From: Patescibacteria group bacterium
GTDB taxonomy: Bacteria > Patescibacteriota > SICC01
Direction of reading: 5' to 3'
Assembly (NCBI GenBank): GCA_040902515.1
Contig: JBBDXB010000006.1
Coordinates: forward strand, 335,814-399,813
DNA: 64,000 nucleotides
Both the position numbers and the translations under genes were made by a program. The first letter of the stretch is position 1; every line of letters begins with the position of its first letter. Positions 1,303 to 59,047 of this stretch are shown piece by piece. Below the pieces are notes generated by a model. The model was not told the origin of the DNA, searched no databases, and was given only the letters and a program-made list of their open reading frames with translations.

Positions 1303-1578
1303 GTGGATCTTGCTGTGATGCAGGACTTTTGGGCGCTTCCCGACCGGGCGCTGTTCGCACTCGGCTTGTTGGGTGCCGTGAACCTTTTGGGGTTCTACCT
1401 GATTCGTTTCGGGACCCGCCCGCGTGAGTCACGTGCGCGGGCCTCACGCAGGTCGCCGTCGTCGGACCCGTCCTCGGGCCGGCCCGGTCGACCGCGCGGA
1501 CCTCCGTGCGTGGCTTACCGAAGTGAAATCTCGTTCACCGCGGCAGCTCCGGCATACCGACAACCCCCATGGGAGTGA
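1303..1578 (+). CDS. possible small membrane protein (N-terminal ~45 aa look genuine, remainder R/S/P-rich and possibly spurious)
   Basis: AAGGAGAG RBS then GTG 1303. The start MDLAVMQDFWALPDRALFALGLLGAVNLLGFYLIRFG is TM-like. No homology recognised. Confidence 0.25.
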   Translation: MDLAVMQDFWALPDRALFALGLLGAVNLLGFYLIRFGTRPRESRARASRRSPSSDPSSGRPGRPRGPPCVAYRSEISFTAAAPAYRQPPWE

Positions 1579-1606
1579 GGGAGTCACGGCCGGGGCTGCC
1601 GCTCTC

Positions 1607-1724
1607 GGCGGCGTAGCTCAGACGGTAGAGCGCTCGCGAGGAGAAGCCACAAGAGAAGGCGGAACGACATCCACCGGCATCGGGTCGGTAGCGAGGAGCG
1701 CGGGTTCAAGTCCCGTCGTCGCCA
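1607..1724 (+). tRNA. atypical tRNA-like gene, 118 nt, with a ~46-nt insertion in the anticodon arm; isotype undetermined
   Basis: Canonical 7-bp acceptor (GGCGGCG/CGTCGCC), U8-A9, D-arm GCTC-AGACGGTA-GAGC, T-arm GCGGG-TTCAAGT-CCCGT, discriminator A. Between the CTCGC and GCGAG stem halves there are 53 nt instead of a 7-nt loop. Confidence 0.45.
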
Positions 1725-1968: not shown

Positions 1969-2027
1969 CCTGGTCCATTGAAGGAAACTGAGGTGATGCA
2001 AGTGACGCAACGCAGAGTGGTAATCGC

Positions 2028-2408
2028 ATGACTACCACCGACACCGTACTGCCCTCTTCACGGGAGGTGAGGGAGCAGGAGGAGAAAGACGTCCACCGCG
2101 ACGTTGTCAGCATCATTGGGAGAGGGGAGTTCACCCGGAAGTTCTGGAGGTTCTACTCTCTCGAGATACCGACCGCCGTCGAGACCGACGGCGAGGAGTG
2201 CAAGGAGTGGTTGGAGCGGAAACTGGAAACGCTTGTCGAGCTCAGTGATGAGCTCAGCGAGTTGATCCCCGGTGCCCGTTCCGACGTTCAGCGAAGCGCC
2301 CTCTACTGCTTGTACGTAGTGGTGGAGGTAATGATCGAGAAGACGCTCGAGACAGTTGTCGAGTTCTTCTTCCCGGACATGCCCTTCGCGTTTGTGGAGC
2401 AAACATGA
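2028..2408 (+). CDS. hypothetical acidic protein (126 aa)
   Basis: ATG ORF in a lower-GC islet between tRNA genes. 4-nt ATGA overlap with the next ORF suggests translational coupling. No homology recognised. Confidence 0.45.
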   Translation: MTTTDTVLPSSREVREQEEKDVHRDVVSIIGRGEFTRKFWRFYSLEIPTAVETDGEECKEWLERKLETLVELSDELSELIPGARSDVQRSALYCLYVVVEVMIEKTLETVVEFFFPDMPFAFVEQT

Positions 2409-2623
2409 GCAAGAAGGGACGAAACACCATCGAGCCCGCATCCAAGCGGGTCAAGGAGTTGCTCCAATCCAAGGCTAGTTTACCGGACCACGAGCGGATG
2501 CGGCTTGTCGCACTCAAGCAGCAAGGCTTGGAGACGAGCCCCGGCCTACGTTCGATCCGCCGCAAGCGGAAGTACGTGACCGAGCAGCTCAGCAAACTGG
2601 GGGTGCAGACCCAAGAGGTCTGA
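2405..2623 (+). CDS. hypothetical basic protein (72 aa, K/R-rich)
   Basis: Start overlaps the stop of the upstream ORF (ATGA). Basic composition suggests a nucleic-acid binder. No homology recognised. Confidence 0.4.
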   Translation: MSKKGRNTIEPASKRVKELLQSKASLPDHERMRLVALKQQGLETSPGLRSIRRKRKYVTEQLSKLGVQTQEV

Positions 2624-2846
2624 CCACACTTCCGGGGGTACCGAACGAGTCGACCGTTCAAAACCCGGCGTTCAGTCGACCACTCTCTGAGTGTGAACGT
2701 CCGACCTGAAACGCCCTTGTGAGAAATACGACATCGATTGATACCACATCATTCGACATCCACCATTTCTTGCAAGGGCTTTTTCTTTTGGCCGGAATTC
2801 CCGCCGCCGGCTACACTGGGAATGTCCGGCGTGCCGGACGACATAC

Positions 2847-2933
2847 GGAGAGGTGGCCGAGTGGTTTAAGGCGCACGCCTGGAACGCGTGTTGGCCCGCA
2901 AGGGTCTCGAGGGTTCGAATCCCTCCCTCTCCG
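2847..2933 (+). tRNA. tRNA-Ser (anticodon GGA), long variable arm
   Basis: GGAGAGG acceptor, D-arm GCC-GAGTGGTTTAA-GGC, anticodon loop CUGGAAC, 18-nt variable arm, T-arm GAGGG-TTCGAAT-CCCTC, discriminator G. Confidence 0.85.
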
Positions 2934-3159
2934 CAGGATAAACGTCCCGTGCGACCCATCCCAATATCGGATATAAGGCAGTGAAGGGTCAAAAGTGGGT
3001 GTAGCAAGAGGGTTCATGACGAGGACAACAGTACCGCCACGGCAGAGGATGTCTAACGGTTACCGAAAAGAGCAGTGAGTGCTATCTTGTAAGCAAGGGG
3101 AAAAGAACTCCTTAATAGTCTGTTTTCTACCGGCAACCGCGAAAACTAGAGGAGCAGGA

Positions 3160-3699
3160 ATGCTTAATCTGCCCAATTGTATTACCTTGTTGCGGTTGCC
3201 AATGATTGCCGGTGTTGTTCTCTTCTTGAGTATGGAGAGCACCACCAGTGACCGCGCAGCCGTACTTTTGGCAGTAGCCATCGTTGGATCGGACGTACTC
3301 GATGGATATATTGCCAAGAAGTACAGCCAGATAACCGAATTCGGACAGTTTATCGACCCCCTTGTCGATAAGCTCTTCATCGCTTCGGCCCTGTTGGCGC
3401 TTTTCGTTCGAGGCGAGGTAGCAGTTTGGGTGATAGTGGTAATCCTCGGTCGCGATCTGGCCGTGACGGCGTTGCGGGCCTATCTTGGTAGAAAGGGCGC
3501 GTCTATGCCTGCTGTTCGGGCGGCTCAACATAAGACAACCCTTCAGTCCTTGATGGTCATCCTTCTAATCGCAGTCAGCGGGAACCCGTTGTGGCTGCAG
3601 GGACTCATCTGGATCACTGTTGGAGTTACGCTCTATACAGGATTCAGGTATTTCCTCACAGCATCAGCACTTCTACAAGAAAGGAAAACTGCGAAGTAA
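3160..3699 (+). CDS. pgsA: CDP-alcohol phosphatidyltransferase (PgsA-like phosphatidylglycerophosphate synthase)
   Basis: D-G-x2-A-K…G-x3-D-x3-D motif (SDVLDGYIAKKYSQITEFGQFIDPLVDKL). Multi-TM. GGAG 5 nt upstream of ATG 3160. Lower GC than neighbours. Confidence 0.75.
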   Translation: MLNLPNCITLLRLPMIAGVVLFLSMESTTSDRAAVLLAVAIVGSDVLDGYIAKKYSQITEFGQFIDPLVDKLFIASALLALFVRGEVAVWVIVVILGRDLAVTALRAYLGRKGASMPAVRAAQHKTTLQSLMVILLIAVSGNPLWLQGLIWITVGVTLYTGFRYFLTASALLQERKTAK

Positions 3700-3726
3700 C
3701 CGGGGCAATCATCAGAAAGTAAATCA

Positions 3727-3768
3727 GTTGGTGGGTGCTGCAGAAAGCACTTTCGGCATCCACCAACC
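3727..3768 (+). terminator. compound GC hairpin after pgsA (GTTGGTGG…CCACCAAC with nested GTGCT/AGCAC stem), no U-tract
   Basis: 8-bp outer stem and 5-bp inner stem starting 28 nt after the pgsA stop. Confidence 0.35.
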
Positions 3769-3782
3769 CTCGGCTTCCACAA

Positions 3783-4460
3783 CTAGGACTCCAGTACCTC
3801 TGCTAGCAAGGATGCCTGTGTCTGTTTGGAGAAATTGTTTATGGGGATATGTTTGTGAAACCTGAGCCCCGGAACCATTGCCGCTGCAAAAAGTGCGAAT
3901 CGTCGGTCGCCATGACGAGCTCGTTCCATAGAGGCGAGATATTGTAGCAGACAAGCTTTACTTTCATTTTCACGTTCTAATCCTTTAGCGCCGAGAATCA
4001 AGTGACCTGTAGCGTGATCGACACCGGCTTGCATGAATACTTCGGCCATGCGGCGAGGGAAGCTGGTCGCAGGAGAATCACTGTAGAGAATCGCTAGCGG
4101 TGTATCCATACCATCGAACTTTACTTCTACGGCCTGGACTTCTTCAGGTGCTGGTCGATCTGCCAGAATCCATCGGGCACTTTCTCTTACGCTTGTAAGC
4201 GTTTCTCGATCTACTCCAATCGATTCAAAGGTATCGAAAGAATCCTCGCGTAACTCGATGAATTGTTCCCAAGTCACGTCTATTTCGGGCAACCGGTCCA
4301 CCATGTGTCGGATCGCCCGATGCAGTCGGGTGTTCGGCCGCGGGGGAGCCGCGTAGCCTACATCGTCTAATAATCGGTCAGGATCCTCAGGCAATAAATG
4401 TGGATTTCTAGATGATTCCTTTACTAGGATTTCTGATAAATCTGGTGAGGGCTCTGGCAC
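3783..4460 (-). CDS. hypothetical protein (225 aa)
   Basis: Minus-strand ORF with GTG start and no obvious SD, in a lower-GC islet. Contains GVDHATGHLILGAKG. No confident family assignment. Confidence 0.45.
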   Translation of the reverse strand: MPEPSPDLSEILVKESSRNPHLLPEDPDRLLDDVGYAAPPRPNTRLHRAIRHMVDRLPEIDVTWEQFIELREDSFDTFESIGVDRETLTSVRESARWILADRPAPEEVQAVEVKFDGMDTPLAILYSDSPATSFPRRMAEVFMQAGVDHATGHLILGAKGLERENESKACLLQYLASMERARHGDRRFALFAAAMVPGLRFHKHIPINNFSKQTQASLLAEVLES

Positions 4461-4487
4461 TGTAGTTGGTTGTTACTTTTCCTTTAG

Positions 4488-4523
4488 TGAGACATCTCTT
4501 TTTATAGTGTCTCATTTGTCTCA
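4488..4523. promoter_or_regulatory. candidate operator: TGAGACA-N13-TGTCTCA-N2-TGTCTCA in a divergent intergenic region
   Basis: Inverted repeat plus a direct repeat of the half-site in an AT-rich spacer between divergent genes (3783..4460 minus, 4703..5314 plus). An orphan AGGAGG at 4534 has no start codon after it. Confidence 0.35.
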
Positions 4524-4702
4524 TTTTGTGCCTAGGAGGATCGTAGACCCACCTGTTCCGCAGGATCGGCCGTATCTGAACCCAGCCCGAGAAGCCGGCT
4601 TCTTTTCGTGATGCCCGGTTGGTACAATGAAGCGCCGACTGACATCAGTTGGTTACCGTCCAGGCACGACCTGGAGCAACGCACATTACAAGGAGGAGAC
4701 AG

Positions 4703-5314
4703 ATGACGGCAACGGCACCGCCGGATGTCATCGTGGTATCGGCCCAAGAGCTCGAGAAGTGGGGCTGCCCGCACTGCGGATTCCAATCGGGGCAGAGCCT
4801 CGCGTCCACGGGTGGCGGAACTTGTTGGATCTGCGGCGAGTGCGGCAGATTCAGCATCGTCCTCGCCGAGGGCCTCACCGAGTCCCCCATCGAGATCGAC
4901 GAGGGGATCATCAAGGTCGGTGGCAATGCCCATGGCCCGACGCTCCAGGAGCACCCGCGCAAGGGAATCCCCAAGCATGGCACTCCCGACGAGCGGCCCG
5001 ATCAGGACGGCGGTGAGCACTTCCGTGTCCGCGGCATCGGTCGCGACCGGACTCCCGGTTGCTTCGTCTGCGGGGGAGAGGAGGAGCTCTACCACAACAT
5101 CGCCGCGTTCGTGCAGTGCAAGGCGTCCGGCGAGCGGGTCGTGGCGATGTTCGAGACAGGAGTTCGTCTCGACTACCGCGACTTCGAGCCCAACCGGGTG
5201 CAGGTGAAGGTGGGGGCGTGCGATACGCATCGCCCGAACTTGGACCGGCTCTACGAGCTGACCGGGGACGGCGTCATCAACGCGGAGCGAATCGAGACCG
5301 CCAGGTCCTGCTGA
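4703..5314 (+). CDS. hypothetical zinc-ribbon protein (multiple CxxC pairs)
   Basis: AGGAGG 6 nt upstream of ATG 4703. Motifs CPHCG…CWICGECG…CFVCGG. High GC typical of the host. The antisense ORF 4532..5230 is judged spurious. Confidence 0.5.
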   Translation: MTATAPPDVIVVSAQELEKWGCPHCGFQSGQSLASTGGGTCWICGECGRFSIVLAEGLTESPIEIDEGIIKVGGNAHGPTLQEHPRKGIPKHGTPDERPDQDGGEHFRVRGIGRDRTPGCFVCGGEEELYHNIAAFVQCKASGERVVAMFETGVRLDYRDFEPNRVQVKVGACDTHRPNLDRLYELTGDGVINAERIETARSC

Positions 5315-5394
5315 AGCACCCTGACTCCTCCATCGGCGTCCGCCGGCCTACCCTTTCATTGGCCGGCGGACGCTTCATCTTGCGCCTCACCTGT

Positions 5395-6183
5395 TTATGT
5401 CTCGATTTTCTTGACCGGCAGGGCGAGGTTGAGCCTTTCGGGGCTATCAAGGCGGTATTTTTTCCAGAGCTCCCGATACCGTGCTTGAACGTTCGGATTG
5501 GAGTGCTCCGCCCCTGAAAGCAAGAAATAGCTGGTCTGTCCCAGAAAACCTTCTGCCCTACGAGGGCCCCCTTTGGTGACTATCTGATTTACCAGGCCCT
5601 CGTAGAGATCCGCAGCGGCCAGGGAAACCTCAGGCAGCGGATGACCGAAAGGAATGTAGCGAACCTGTAATTCTATGTGATTATCCTCGTCAATCCAGCA
5701 GGCGAGGCGGTCACCCGCGGCTTTTAGTGCGCGCTTTGCGATTTCGGCATCTCTCATTTGTCCGGCTATGTTCAAGAGCTCGCCGGTGTCACCAGCGCTC
5801 TTTTCCCGCGAGACTGCAATCATGTGTTCAAGTGCGGCTACGCGCTCTTCCTTACTGAAGGCGGGGTTATATAGAACCATCCTTGAAGAGCGGTATATCT
5901 GCTCATCATCGACCACCTCTCCATCGGTCGCATCCTCCAGCAGCCGTTCATATGCGCGAGACGCGAGGTCTCGATCATGCTGGTCCAAAACTCGCAGAAG
6001 TTTCATTCTGCCCGCGTAATTGAGGTCATGATCATCGTCTTCGATGAGGACTAGGGCTTTTTTAAGCAACTGCTTTACACTTGCTTGGGACTCTGTGGAC
6101 GTCTCACAGAAGCCTGGTTCGAACAGTTCATCAGCGGGTGGATGCTGGTCGGGCGTATGCCCCTCGGTGTGTTCTGCACTCAT
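5395..6183 (-). CDS. hypothetical protein (263 aa), divergent from the TrmB-family regulator gene
   Basis: ATG at 6183 preceded by GGGGAG. Lower GC. No homology recognised. Confidence 0.5.
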   Translation of the reverse strand: MSAEHTEGHTPDQHPPADELFEPGFCETSTESQASVKQLLKKALVLIEDDDHDLNYAGRMKLLRVLDQHDRDLASRAYERLLEDATDGEVVDDEQIYRSSRMVLYNPAFSKEERVAALEHMIAVSREKSAGDTGELLNIAGQMRDAEIAKRALKAAGDRLACWIDEDNHIELQVRYIPFGHPLPEVSLAAADLYEGLVNQIVTKGGPRRAEGFLGQTSYFLLSGAEHSNPNVQARYRELWKKYRLDSPERLNLALPVKKIET

Positions 6184-6238
6184 TAGCTCCCCTTGGTTAA
6201 TTATTCGAGCTATCGAGTATCGCACGGATTCAAAAAAG

Positions 6239-6302
6239 TGTCAATGACAAGCATTTAATTTACTTAATATAGCTTTAGAAAGTGTCAAAATAGAGATTGA
6301 CA
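6239..6302. promoter_or_regulatory. two TGTCA/TGACA palindromes (TGTCA-A-TGACA at 6239-6249; TGTCA-N10-TGACA at 6283-6302), candidate operators
   Basis: Perfect inverted repeats in an AT-rich divergent intergenic region. The second overlaps the -35 of the regulator promoter. Confidence 0.45.
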
Positions 6303-6325
6303 AAAGTAAGAAGGCAAACTATACT
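6297..6325 (+). promoter_or_regulatory. sigma70-type promoter TTGACA-17-TATACT driving a leaderless transcript of the TrmB-like gene
   Basis: Consensus -35 at 6297-6302, 17-nt spacer, -10 at 6320-6325. ATG at 6332 lies about 7 nt downstream of the -10, with no SD. Confidence 0.6.
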
Positions 6326-6331
6326 CGCCGA

Positions 6332-7099
6332 ATGAACACTGCGTTGCTCACGAAGCTTGGCCTTACCGACTCCCAGGCGAAGACCTATCTCGCGTTGATC
6401 AAGGCCGGTCGGCTCACGCCGCCGGAGCTGGCGGCGAAGACCGGCGAGAGTCGCACCGCTGCCTACATGGCGCTCGCCAAGCTGGAGGAGGTCGGCCTGG
6501 CCCGGCCGGTGGAGGGTGCACGCAAGCAGACGTATGAGCCGGTCAATCCCGCCGAGTTGGAGCGATACCTTGACCGCCGGCGCAAGGAGTTGACGGAGAT
6601 CGAGGAAAACTATCGAGACTCGCTTTCCGGCATGCTGAGCTACTACTACGCGCACCGCAACGAACCAGGCGTACGGTTTTTCCAGGGCGAAAAGGGGTTG
6701 ACCAAGATTTACGAGGATCACCTGCGGACTGGCGAGGACGTCTACTTCGTCCGCACCCCGGCGGACGAGCAGTACTTCGGCAAGATCCTTTACCAGTACA
6801 TGACCAAACGGGCGCAGGCGGGGATTACCGCACACGGCCTGGCGCCATACAGTGAACGCGCCGCAACATGGGCCAAGCAGCACGACAAGCAGCTCAAGCG
6901 TGATATGACCTGGTACCCGCGCAAGGCCTACACGGCGCCGGTCGAGATCGCGGTGTACGGAAACAAGGTGTCGCTGGTTTCATTCGGCGATGAGGCGATT
7001 GGTACGATCATTGAAAGTCCCCAGATCGCACAGGCGCTGCGGGAGCTGCTCGGGATGGCGAGGGCCGGCGCCGGCGAGTTGATGCGGAAAATCCGCTGA
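6332..7099 (+). CDS. TrmB-family transcriptional regulator
   Basis: N-terminal winged HTH typical of TrmB (LTDSQAKTYLALIKAGRLTPPELAAKTGESRTAAYMALAKLEEVGLA) plus a C-terminal effector-like domain. Confidence 0.7.
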   Translation: MNTALLTKLGLTDSQAKTYLALIKAGRLTPPELAAKTGESRTAAYMALAKLEEVGLARPVEGARKQTYEPVNPAELERYLDRRRKELTEIEENYRDSLSGMLSYYYAHRNEPGVRFFQGEKGLTKIYEDHLRTGEDVYFVRTPADEQYFGKILYQYMTKRAQAGITAHGLAPYSERAATWAKQHDKQLKRDMTWYPRKAYTAPVEIAVYGNKVSLVSFGDEAIGTIIESPQIAQALRELLGMARAGAGELMRKIR

Positions 7100-7103
7100 T
7101 CGT

Positions 7104-8042
7104 CTAGTTGTTCTCGCCGGACCGCTTCTTGGCCGCGCCCATTTGTATCCGGGCTTCCTTGCGGCCGCGCTTGATGCCATGCCAGACGAGGCGCCCCAGT
7201 TCCGCAGCTAGGCGGAACGGCATGGCGACGACCCATTTGGCGGGATTGCTTTTCTTATACGTCTTGATGATGCGCTGAATTGATCCCTCTACGGCCCGCA
7301 TGGTCTCGGATGCCGGCTGCCCCTGCGCTTCGAATTCATGGATCTGGTCCTGCCGATGCTTCCGGGCGCGCGCCAGCCAGTCTTCCGTGATCTCCTTTTC
7401 CTTCAGTTCGTTCAGCGCTTTCCGGCGCTCCAGGTACTTTTCCCATGGCCACCAGCGCGCCCCCTGTTCGGATGTCCGATCGATGTGGTTTTGCACGTTG
7501 TTCAGGGTCTCTTCGCGGCGAAGCTGTTCCGCCAGGTCCTTGACCTCGATTTCATCACGCACATCCGCGCGATCGATGCGCCGCTTGGTCCGGCCCGAGG
7601 CGTTCTCGTAGGCAGCGGTCGCGTCCTGGGTGGCCGCCACAGTATCCAGTCCGGATTTAGTCGCGAAGTCGTACTCCTCTTGCTTCATGAAACGGCCCCT
7701 GGAGTCCCGCTTGGGAGTCTTGCGGCGCAATGTACTTTCCGCGTGTTTCAGTTCTCGTTCCTCGATATCCTCCGTAATCTCGACGCCCTTTTCGCTGAGC
7801 CGATGCAACCGGGCCCGCGTTTCCGCGAGCGCTTCCTCGCGTGAAGCCTCGTGGGCCTCCGAGTAGAGGCCCCAGGCTTCTTCCTCGGCTCTACTGACGA
7901 TCTCGTCCTGCATCTCCGGCGAAGAAGTCTCGAAGAAGTCCTTCTGTCGCTGTTCGAGGTGCTCAGGACCACGTTTTGCTTCGTCCGGCGCCGGTTGTTC
8001 GCGTTCACTCATGGTATTTTCAAAATTGCTTAATGGTAGCAC
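7104..8042 (-). CDS. hypothetical highly charged (E/R/K-rich) coiled-coil protein; start at GTG 8042 or ATG 8012
   Basis: Long ORF with no SD at either start. Composition suggests an extended alpha-helical protein. Confidence 0.45.
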   Translation of the reverse strand: MLPLSNFENTMSEREQPAPDEAKRGPEHLEQRQKDFFETSSPEMQDEIVSRAEEEAWGLYSEAHEASREEALAETRARLHRLSEKGVEITEDIEERELKHAESTLRRKTPKRDSRGRFMKQEEYDFATKSGLDTVAATQDATAAYENASGRTKRRIDRADVRDEIEVKDLAEQLRREETLNNVQNHIDRTSEQGARWWPWEKYLERRKALNELKEKEITEDWLARARKHRQDQIHEFEAQGQPASETMRAVEGSIQRIIKTYKKSNPAKWVVAMPFRLAAELGRLVWHGIKRGRKEARIQMGAAKKRSGENN

Positions 8043-58925: not shown

Positions 58926-58998
58926 TATGTGGGCTGCCCCGGTAGCTCAGTTGGCAGAGCAGTGGGCTTTTAACCCATGTGTCGGGGGTTCGAGACCC
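58926..58998 (+). tRNA. tRNA-Lys (anticodon UUU)
   Basis: Acceptor GCCCCGG/CCGGGGC, D-arm GCTC-AGTTGGCA-GAGC, anticodon loop CUUUUAA, T-arm GGGGG-TTCGAGA-CCCTC, discriminator A. Confidence 0.85.
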
Positions 58999-59047
58999 TC
59001 CCGGGGCACACTTGACCAAAATTAAAGGCGTGCTAGGTTTAGAAGCT

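Follow-up and report, generated by a model that had tools for sequence, protein, structure and literature searches.

A tRNA-shaped gene without a recoverable anticodon at a conserved pyruvate kinase locus of high-GC Patescibacteria

The 64,000-nucleotide (nt) stretch of DNA analysed here, referred to as the window throughout, comes from contig JBBDXB010000006.1 of a high-GC Patescibacteria (candidate phyla radiation, CPR) metagenome-assembled genome (MAG). It is bacterial chromosome of about 64% GC and carries, at 1607-1724 on the + strand, a gene of 118 nt that has the structure of a tRNA and no recoverable anticodon. Genes of the same kind stand in synteny in related genomes, and their stems have evolved by compensatory change. 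The explanation that we favour, with our confidence evenly divided, is that 1607-1724 is a gene, conserved in this lineage, for a tRNA-shaped RNA that does not decode, and that the insert replacing the anticodon loop is not an intron and is retained in the RNA. The acceptor stem, the D arm, the T arm and the base of the anticodon stem would then be under selection, and the distal part of the arm would be a free module specific to each lineage. No description of such elements was found in the literature searched.

The element matches the Rfam tRNA model RF00005 from end to end (50.4 bits, E 7.7e-08, gathering score 29), and the alignment uses every position of the model (1-71 of 71); where a 7-nt anticodon loop is expected, 53 nt are inserted. 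Its parts follow one another in the order GGCGGCG-TA-GCTC-AGACGGTA-GAGC-G-CTCGC-(53 nt)-GCGAG-GAGC-GCGGG-TTCAAGT-CCCGT-CGTCGCC-A. The 5' body (1607-1632), in which all pairs are intact, starts with the acceptor strand GGCGGCG (1607-1613), followed by U8 and A9, and continues with the D stem GCTC/GAGC (1616-1619/1628-1631), whose loop AGACGGTA contains G18 and G19, and with a G at position 26. The expanded "anticodon" arm of 63 nt (1633-1695) consists of an outer stem CTCGC/GCGAG (1633-1637/1691-1695) around the 53-nt insert (1638-1690), and the 3' body (1696-1724) comprises a 4-nt variable loop (GAGC), the T stem GCGGG/CCCGT (1700-1704/1712-1716) with the loop TTCAAGT, the acceptor strand CGTCGCC (1717-1723) and the discriminator A1724 (A73). 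All four stems are fully paired, with G5-U68 and G49-U65 as the wobble pairs, and CCA is encoded neither here nor in the other tRNAs of the window. An initial annotation made from the sequence had described this anatomy (an acceptor stem with a G-U pair, U8/A9, a D arm, a TTCAAGT T arm and 53 nt between CTCGC and GCGAG), and both the sequence and the model bear it out; its label "tRNA-like", which had been made to depend on a covariance-model hit, is sustained by the match at 50.4 bits. It had seen the anticodon arm as the sole deviation from a tRNA, but the variable loop of 4 nt is of unusual length as well. A pattern of D arm, 50-80 nt and T arm has a single occurrence in the window, and 100 shuffles gave none. 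In its default mode ARAGORN does not report 1607-1724, while it does report the three ordinary tRNAs of the window (Val-GAC at 1839-1913, Ser-GGA at 2847-2934 and Lys-TTT at 58936-59009), and no Rfam family besides tRNA was found at 1607-1724 even at E<=1 in a permissive rescan of the whole window.

With canonical bacterial tRNAs (RF00005) the element shares the 7-bp acceptor stem, U8, the D arm with G18 and G19, the TTC-containing T arm, a 5-bp base of the anticodon stem and A73; it differs from them in its 4-nt variable loop, in a far faster evolution of its body and, above all, in having no recoverable 7-nt loop. All single excisions were enumerated whose product keeps position 26, has two 5-bp stem strands around a loop of 6-9 nt and ends in a variable loop of 4-5 nt, and this exhaustive scan gave no solution with U33 plus a purine at position 37; the best 7-nt loop obtained from any excision reads G-U-CGG-U-A, with G32 and U37. 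Among the properties of a functional decoder, the element thus has the covariance score and has neither a 7-nt loop with U33 and purine 37 nor the sequence conservation of a tRNA. Since it fails the defining feature of the anticodon loop, it is not to be filed as a decoding tRNA.

Loci of relatives were fetched with the pyruvate kinases of the clade (345-351 aa) as anchors. The order of genes is conserved among them: pyruvate kinase is followed by a promoter, a small open reading frame (ORF), one or two tRNA-like elements, often tRNA-Val/tRNA-Ile and, further on, tRNA-Ser(GGA). Comparison with orthologous loci, which the initial annotation had proposed as a check, brought up tRNA-shaped genes with abnormal anticodon arms of 13 nt (locus L126), 15 nt (L127), 43 nt (L210) and 50 nt (L212), beside the 63 nt of the window; the length is never 17, and none of these five elements has an anticodon loop. 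The element of L212 (3475-3580; pyruvate kinase 60% identical) is the clearest ortholog. It scores 32.3 bits against RF00005, carries a 40-nt insertion between CUGGA and UCCAG, and has in common with the window element the unusual T loop UUCAAGU, a near-identical D loop (AGAYGGUA) and the 4-nt variable loop; only 5 nt separate it from a downstream tRNA-Val, and the same order of tRNA-like gene and tRNA-Val is seen in L214. At L210/L211 (kinase 63%) a 99-nt element (46.7 bits) bears a 35-nt hairpin insertion, at L127 a 70-nt element (54.1 bits) has a 5-nt loop (UUCCU-CAAAA-AGGAA), and at L126 an element of 70 nt, labelled "tRNA-???" by ARAGORN, has the arm CCCC-UACCC-GGGG. For the closest relative, L209 (93% identical), the downstream DNA is missing. 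The L121/L122 loci come from GCA_025449535.1 and JGI 3300035108, that of L212 from SRR14610230 and that of L210 from JGI 3300048927. A metagenome scan with the pyruvate kinase returned distant kinases only, and a search with its C-terminal fragment found no close relatives.

Stem pairs were counted from explicit parses of the structures, MAFFT having misaligned the tRNA bodies. In the acceptor, D and T stems of the five elements 79/80 cells hold standard pairs, and 10 of the 16 pairs show changes on both sides across the five. Between the window element and that of L212, 10 of the 21 pairs of the acceptor, D, outer anticodon and T stems differ, and nine of these ten still pair. In six of them both partners have changed, acceptor pairs 2, 3 and 6 being among these, and the outer anticodon stem has kept its pairing through two such changes; given random dinucleotides (P(pair) = 0.375), the binomial P for at least 9/10 changed pairs still pairing is about 0.001. 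The bodies of the elements are 57-72% identical to one another, compared with 82-99% for tRNA-Ser(GGA) in the same loci, which indicates that the constraint on sequence is relaxed and pairing is retained. Similarity between the inserts is not significant (shuffle fractions of 0.06 for the window and L212, 0.25 and 0.10). This pattern, in which the helices appear strongly constrained, the sequence weakly and the distal arm not at all, is the one expected under selection for tRNA shape only.

The main rival explanation, which we consider unlikely on balance and still regard as a serious one, is that the element is a decaying tRNA pseudogene: a redundant tRNA of a dynamic cluster, e.g., a tRNA-Ile(UAU) or a tRNA-Val paralogue, would have suffered indels in its anticodon loop and be drifting, without function, toward loss. 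A number of observations speak for it and against selection on shape. L128 lacks the element, L213 retains only 22 nt of its 5' part, the copy in L214 is visibly eroded, and even that of L212 is slightly so, with one G-G mismatch and an extra base after U8; the element is thus dispensable in some lineages. In L121 the equivalent slot is occupied by an intact tRNA-Ile(UAU), and among body matches to the tRNA-like elements this gene ranks first or nearly so (39-44/56). The bodies evolve much faster than tRNA-Ser, are by sequence no closer to one another than to ordinary tRNAs, and enclose inserts without conserved sequence or strong fold. When the acceptor stems are compared under the rules of tRNA identity, G1 alone is conserved across the elements (pair 3-70 is C-G in the window) and no identity element is (no G3-U70, no G-1), so no specific partner is indicated. 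The orthology of the L126, L127 and L210 elements to that of the window rests on synteny, the strongest argument from covariation rests on the single pair of the window and L212, and the whole sample comprises about 6-9 lineages, all of them MAGs or metagenome contigs.

Moreover, a second set of anticodon-less elements exists at the locus. These type B elements (L121 7465-7536 and L125 4986-5058) have a 7-bp acceptor stem, a good T arm and a degenerate D arm, and in place of an anticodon arm they carry a hairpin of about 10 bp that ends in a UNCG or GNRA tetraloop. They show no similarity to the window element; significantly closest to them are the tRNA-Val(GAC) genes (z about 5) together with the element of L210 (3099-3197), which itself groups with this tRNA-Val(GAC)/type B lineage, so that the neighbouring tRNA-Val(GAC) lineage is anticodon-less in L121, L125 and L210. 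By sequence, then, the locus holds at least two gene lineages in which the anticodon was lost in different genomes, and together with the cases of loss and erosion this keeps the pseudogene explanation alive. A possible homology between window positions 1541-1612 and the 5' halves of the type B elements (L121, L125) was also considered and rejected as not significant (shuffle fractions of 0.15 and 0.7).

Against decay stands the state of the bodies. With kinases only 60% identical and intergenic DNA otherwise unalignable, a neutral sequence should have lost its tRNA score, but scores of 50 (window), 54 (L127), 47 (L210) and 32 bits (L212) persist; the near-complete pairing of the stems and the six two-sided changes between the window and L212 point the same way, and separate recent inactivations confined to the anticodon arm in five lineages would be unparsimonious. 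The uncompensated stem disruptions and the lack of covariation that mark neutral decay were not found, in what is a small sample with erosion in L214 and loss in L213 and L128. Among the three options that the initial annotation had offered, the pseudogene and the tRNA-derived non-decoding RNA remain, with the compensatory stem changes in favour of the latter, whereas the short intron, to which we now turn, falls.

In Patescibacteria, tRNA genes are interrupted by self-splicing group I ribozymes in the anticodon loop (between 33/34 and 36/37), and splicing restores canonical tRNAs (PMC13011429). The window element shares with these genes the phylum, an interruption in the anticodon region and the escape from standard tRNA finders; it differs in the absence of any possible canonical product, in the lack of a match to the group I intron core (RF00028) in the Rfam scans and in the size of its insert, 53 nt. 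Group I introns are typically longer than 200 nt. Archaeal and eukaryal introns with a bulge-helix-bulge (BHB) junction (PMC4090602) likewise place tens of nucleotides in the anticodon arm, and our pattern scan for relatives recovered many archaeal tRNAs with introns of 24-54 nt at 37/38. In contrast, the window element is bacterial, no excision from it gives U33 and purine 37, and the BHB structure is absent from its junctions: the fold check for a splice motif suggested in the initial annotation yielded two BHB-like matches, both on the acceptor 3' strand, against a shuffle mean of 0.9. A mini-intron was therefore rejected, as the excision scan gave no canonical arm, BHB motifs were at chance and neither group I nor any other Rfam family was matched; the same results, and orthologs that are equally anticodon-less, leave the option of a short intron with non-canonical processing unsupported.

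One might still imagine a genuine intron-containing tRNA from which some novel bacterial pathway (e.g., an endonuclease and RtcB) would remove about 46 nt to give the Pro-like loop G-U-CGG-U-A. The body is that of a perfect tRNA, excision after 31/32 does give a 7-nt loop with U33 and CGG, and cleanly excisable short structured inserts exist in other bacterial and phage tRNA genes. Yet this sole 7-nt loop carries G32 and U37, and the G1-C72 pair of the element is unlike bacterial tRNA-Pro, which has C1-G72; the inserts of L212 and L210 yield no canonical loop, the 5-nt loops of L126 and L127 offer nothing to remove, and the insert of the window is unrelated to the excisable families. Taken with the absence of BHB and group I features, these points make such a tRNA very improbable. 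A splicing endonuclease of the EndA type is not known from bacteria.

The excisable inserts just mentioned came from the same pattern scan, which gave at least 120 matches in GTDB genomes and at least 120 in IMG/VR. The matches listed comprise archaeal introns, att-type duplications and many bacterial and phage tRNA genes with inserts of 41-54 nt that are structured and conserved and whose removal after position 28/29 regenerates a perfect tRNA. This site lies in the anticodon stem, on its 5' side, and not in the loop, and the isotypes concerned include Lys, Met, Ile, Arg, Pro, Thr, Asn, Gly and Cys. At least three insert families can be told apart: (a) UUGCC-hairpin-GGCCG...GGUUAUC, (b) hairpin-ACAGCAA, which accounts for 35/97 clean viral tRNA matches among the matches listed, and (c) ...UUACUYC. 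A family with covarying helices occurs in tandem arrays in cyanobacteria, Chloroflexia and other phyla. Example loci are L004 3999-4531, L071 6774-7255, L102 (two copies, - strand), L103, L105, L055 and L094; L017, L030, L063 7093-7354, L104 and L110; L042, L047 and L070 1602-1843; and the viral loci L231-L332. Rfam 15 contains no model for these inserts, and no description was found in the literature searched. Short inserts in bacterial tRNAs, which the initial annotation had called unusual, are accordingly less rare than was assumed, but that of the window is not among them. It resembles them in being a short anticodon-arm insert, in the total gene length of about 110-125 nt and in that such genes may escape standard finders; unlike these conserved families of the 5' anticodon-stem strand, which keep the anticodon stem-loop whole and in which one excision restores a normal tRNA, it replaces the loop itself, is not productively excisable and has no sequence similarity to them. 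The position-28/29 inserts represent a different and much more widespread phenomenon that merits separate study.

An error of assembly or binning, i.e., a chimeric join within a tRNA gene of the MAG, has the lowest probability of all the alternatives, close to negligible. The source is indeed a MAG, and tRNA genes are repeats prone to misjoins by assemblers, but both flanks of the insert fit one coherent cloverleaf and the same architecture was met in independent assemblies, with the 40-nt insert of L212 (Logan) and the 35-nt insert of L210 (JGI), which is identical to that of L211 (Logan).

The insert itself begins with a purine-rich, mostly unpaired tract, GAGGAGAAGCCACAAGAGAAGGCGGAA, followed by a small hairpin predicted by folding (ACCGGC-AUCGG-GUCGGU, 1673-1689). 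Folding is weak: z is -1.2 when the entire element is taken, -1.6 for its arm and -1.6 to -2.1 across the arms examined, which, like the lack of significant similarity between inserts, fits a module free of constraint. The greater part of 1638-1672 is rich in purines and predicted to stay unpaired, and this could point to a tRNA-scaffolded regulatory RNA, in which the body provides processing or stability and the unpaired tract GAGGAGAAG...AAGAGAAGGCGGAA, which resembles a Shine-Dalgarno sequence, pairs with a pyrimidine-rich target such as the anti-Shine-Dalgarno sequence of 16S rRNA or an mRNA. Strings like GGAGAAG or AGAAG(G)CGG are found in the arms of L210 and L212 too, and the body would be conserved just as under the explanation that we favour. 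However, the similarity between inserts stays within what shuffling produces, AGAAGGCGG-like strings are common in the window (38 matches), the arms of L126 (UACCC) and L127 (CAAAA) have no purine-rich tract, and no target was identified; we regard a regulatory RNA of this kind as improbable. A motif shared within the inserts (ACAAG-AGAAGGCGG vs ACAAGCAGAA-GCGG) was dismissed as not significant at a shuffle fraction of 0.06.

Other identities were tried and given up. The octamer GCGAGGAG, noted in the initial annotation on both sides of the insert, is indeed present at 1636-1643 and 1691-1698, but the significance suggested for it is unsupported: an exact 8-mer direct repeat is present in 13% of shuffled 118-mers and the octamer is partly dictated by stem pairing, so the repeat is not evidence for a target-site duplication. 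Removal of one repeat together with the insert leaves no anticodon arm, and the insert has no second copy within the 64-kb window and no similarity to the inserts of other loci, including the insert families compared, which disposes of a mobile insert. A phage origin was rejected as megablast gave no match to phage records and the flanking genes are housekeeping genes. A K-turn or similar protein-binding motif at the insert base, where the elements of the window, L212 and L210 have "GA" after their outer stems, was discarded: on manual inspection the strands are unfit for a K-turn. A reading as transfer-messenger RNA (tmRNA) was likewise set aside. With tmRNA the element shares an acceptor and T arm closed by both ends and a large insertion at the site of an anticodon arm, and its insert is an open frame up to TAG (EEKPQEKAERHPPASGR and stop; 17 codons), as expected by chance at 64% GC. 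It differs in that no tmRNA model matches anywhere in the window (ARAGORN, Rfam), in the absence of G3-U70 and of pseudoknots, in its normal D stem and in a "tag" without a hydrophobic, degron-like end.

Returning to a non-decoding gene selected for its shape, the closest functional parallels lie outside bacteria. In mascRNA/MALAT1-type elements and in the tRNA punctuation of mitochondrial transcripts, a tRNA shape stands after another gene, and RNase P and RNase Z create the ends. The window element shares with them its tRNA shape, a non-conserved and non-decoding anticodon region and a place directly after another gene; the parallels are eukaryotic or organellar and without sequence relationship to it, and they do not have its combination of a full-size body and an expanded arm. 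In its shape, in an arm varying from 13 to 63 nt and in its place after another gene, it has the architecture of tRNA-like processing elements, and by this analogy it would most plausibly work like mascRNA or the mitochondrial punctuation elements.

The surroundings of the element are compatible with such a role. Behind the pyruvate kinase gene lies a promoter-like site read from the sequence (1201-1229, + strand; TTTACT-17 nt-TAGGCT with TG before the -10), which a consensus promoter scan of the window did not list; a TTTACN-17-TAnnTT motif is found directly after the pyruvate kinase stop in L121, L125, L126, L127, L210, L212 and L213. It is followed by the small ORF (1303-1578, + strand), which encodes 91 aa from a GTG start with a hydrophobic N-terminal half and has its stop 28 nt before the element. 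This ORF is hydrophobic in several lineages and belongs to no Pfam family, and its copies in L212, L214, L125 and L127 share a C-terminal motif P(A/G)(Y/F)(F/W)(L/I)PGH(R/K)R, of which only "PAY" is recognisable in the window. In seven loci the distance from its end to the first tRNA-like element is 5-28 nt, and in most it is 5-15 nt. The conserved promoter and the small ORF ending 5-28 nt upstream would put the element inside a transcription unit; downstream of it, at a distance of 115 nt, lies tRNA-Val(GAC) (1840-1913, + strand), and no terminator-like site was found by a scan of the + strand among the small ORF, the element and this tRNA.

From this arrangement we infer co-transcription, processing and a role for the released RNA, as follows. 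Transcription would start at the promoter after pyruvate kinase and include the small ORF, the element and tRNA-Val(GAC). The L-shape of the tRNA body would be recognised, independently of an anticodon, by RNase P, by RNase Z or 3' exonucleases, and by the CCA-adding enzyme, and as a processing ("punctuation") signal the element would set the 3' end of the small-ORF mRNA and free the downstream tRNA, while being released itself as a stable tRNA mimic of about 118 nt incapable of decoding. It is interesting to speculate that, at gaps of 5-15 nt, a terminating ribosome overlaps the 5' strand of the acceptor stem and could thereby couple translation to processing.

Further observations concern the neighbourhood of the element. 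The window pyruvate kinase (102-1148; 348 aa), which matches a protein of a "Patescibacteria group bacterium" MAG with 100% identity, consists of the barrel domain only, without the C-terminal PK_C domain, as do about 20 related pyruvate kinases of the same clade (345-351 aa); other genes of the window encode GMP synthase, a PilB-type ATPase and a subtilase/SpoIID protein. The tRNA-Val(GAC) of the window is itself peculiar: position 33 of its loop (UAGACAC) is A, where U is nearly universal, and G1 is mismatched with G72. In its counterparts the base at 33 is C in L214 (UCGACAC) and A, together with the anticodon AAC, in L212 (UAAACAC). In L127 the interval from the small ORF to the 70-nt tRNA-like gene contains a 103-nt element (5429-5531) that is closed by an acceptor-like stem (GGAGACG...CGTCTCC), includes a T-loop-like UUCGAUU and folds no better than shuffled sequence (z -0.5). 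The heptamer GCAGTAC has 12 copies in the window (3.5 expected; 0/100 shuffles reached 12), at 1796, 1946, 2046(-), 41089(-), 41693, 41753 and six more sites; it clusters in intergenic DNA near tRNA genes, often with CCAGT-like repeats, and is also present in the intergenic DNA of L125, L126 and L128. From the ORFs between tRNA-Val and tRNA-Ser(GGA) onward, at 2001-8000, the GC content drops to 54-59% as compared to about 64% elsewhere, and eight of the nine ORFs examined in this interval have no Pfam family, the exception being a CDP-alcohol phosphatidyltransferase (3079-3699). The interval may be a horizontally acquired island beside tRNA genes.

For annotation in general, bacterial covariance-model "tRNA" matches with long insertions in the anticodon arm should be checked for a restorable arm before they are recorded as intron-containing genes or enter tRNA counts. 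For the biology of this clade, we tentatively put forward a wider proposal, possible in our view and rather doubtful in its full extent. It holds that the clade maintains an anticodon-less, tRNA-shaped RNA by selection on shape alone, with the 13-63 nt arm as an evolvable module. As a bacterial counterpart of mascRNA and mitochondrial punctuation, this RNA would serve as an RNase P/Z signal in the maturation of the mRNA of a conserved small membrane protein and of tRNA-Val and would persist as a CCA-tailed mimic, and several tRNA genes of the locus, namely the element and those of the tRNA-Val(GAC) lineage, would be former decoders turned into mimics of this kind. The minimal genomes of CPR bacteria leave little room for junk, and if the element is a selected anticodon-less mimic, it would provide a clear example, from bacteria, of a tRNA gene put to new use for its shape and not for decoding.

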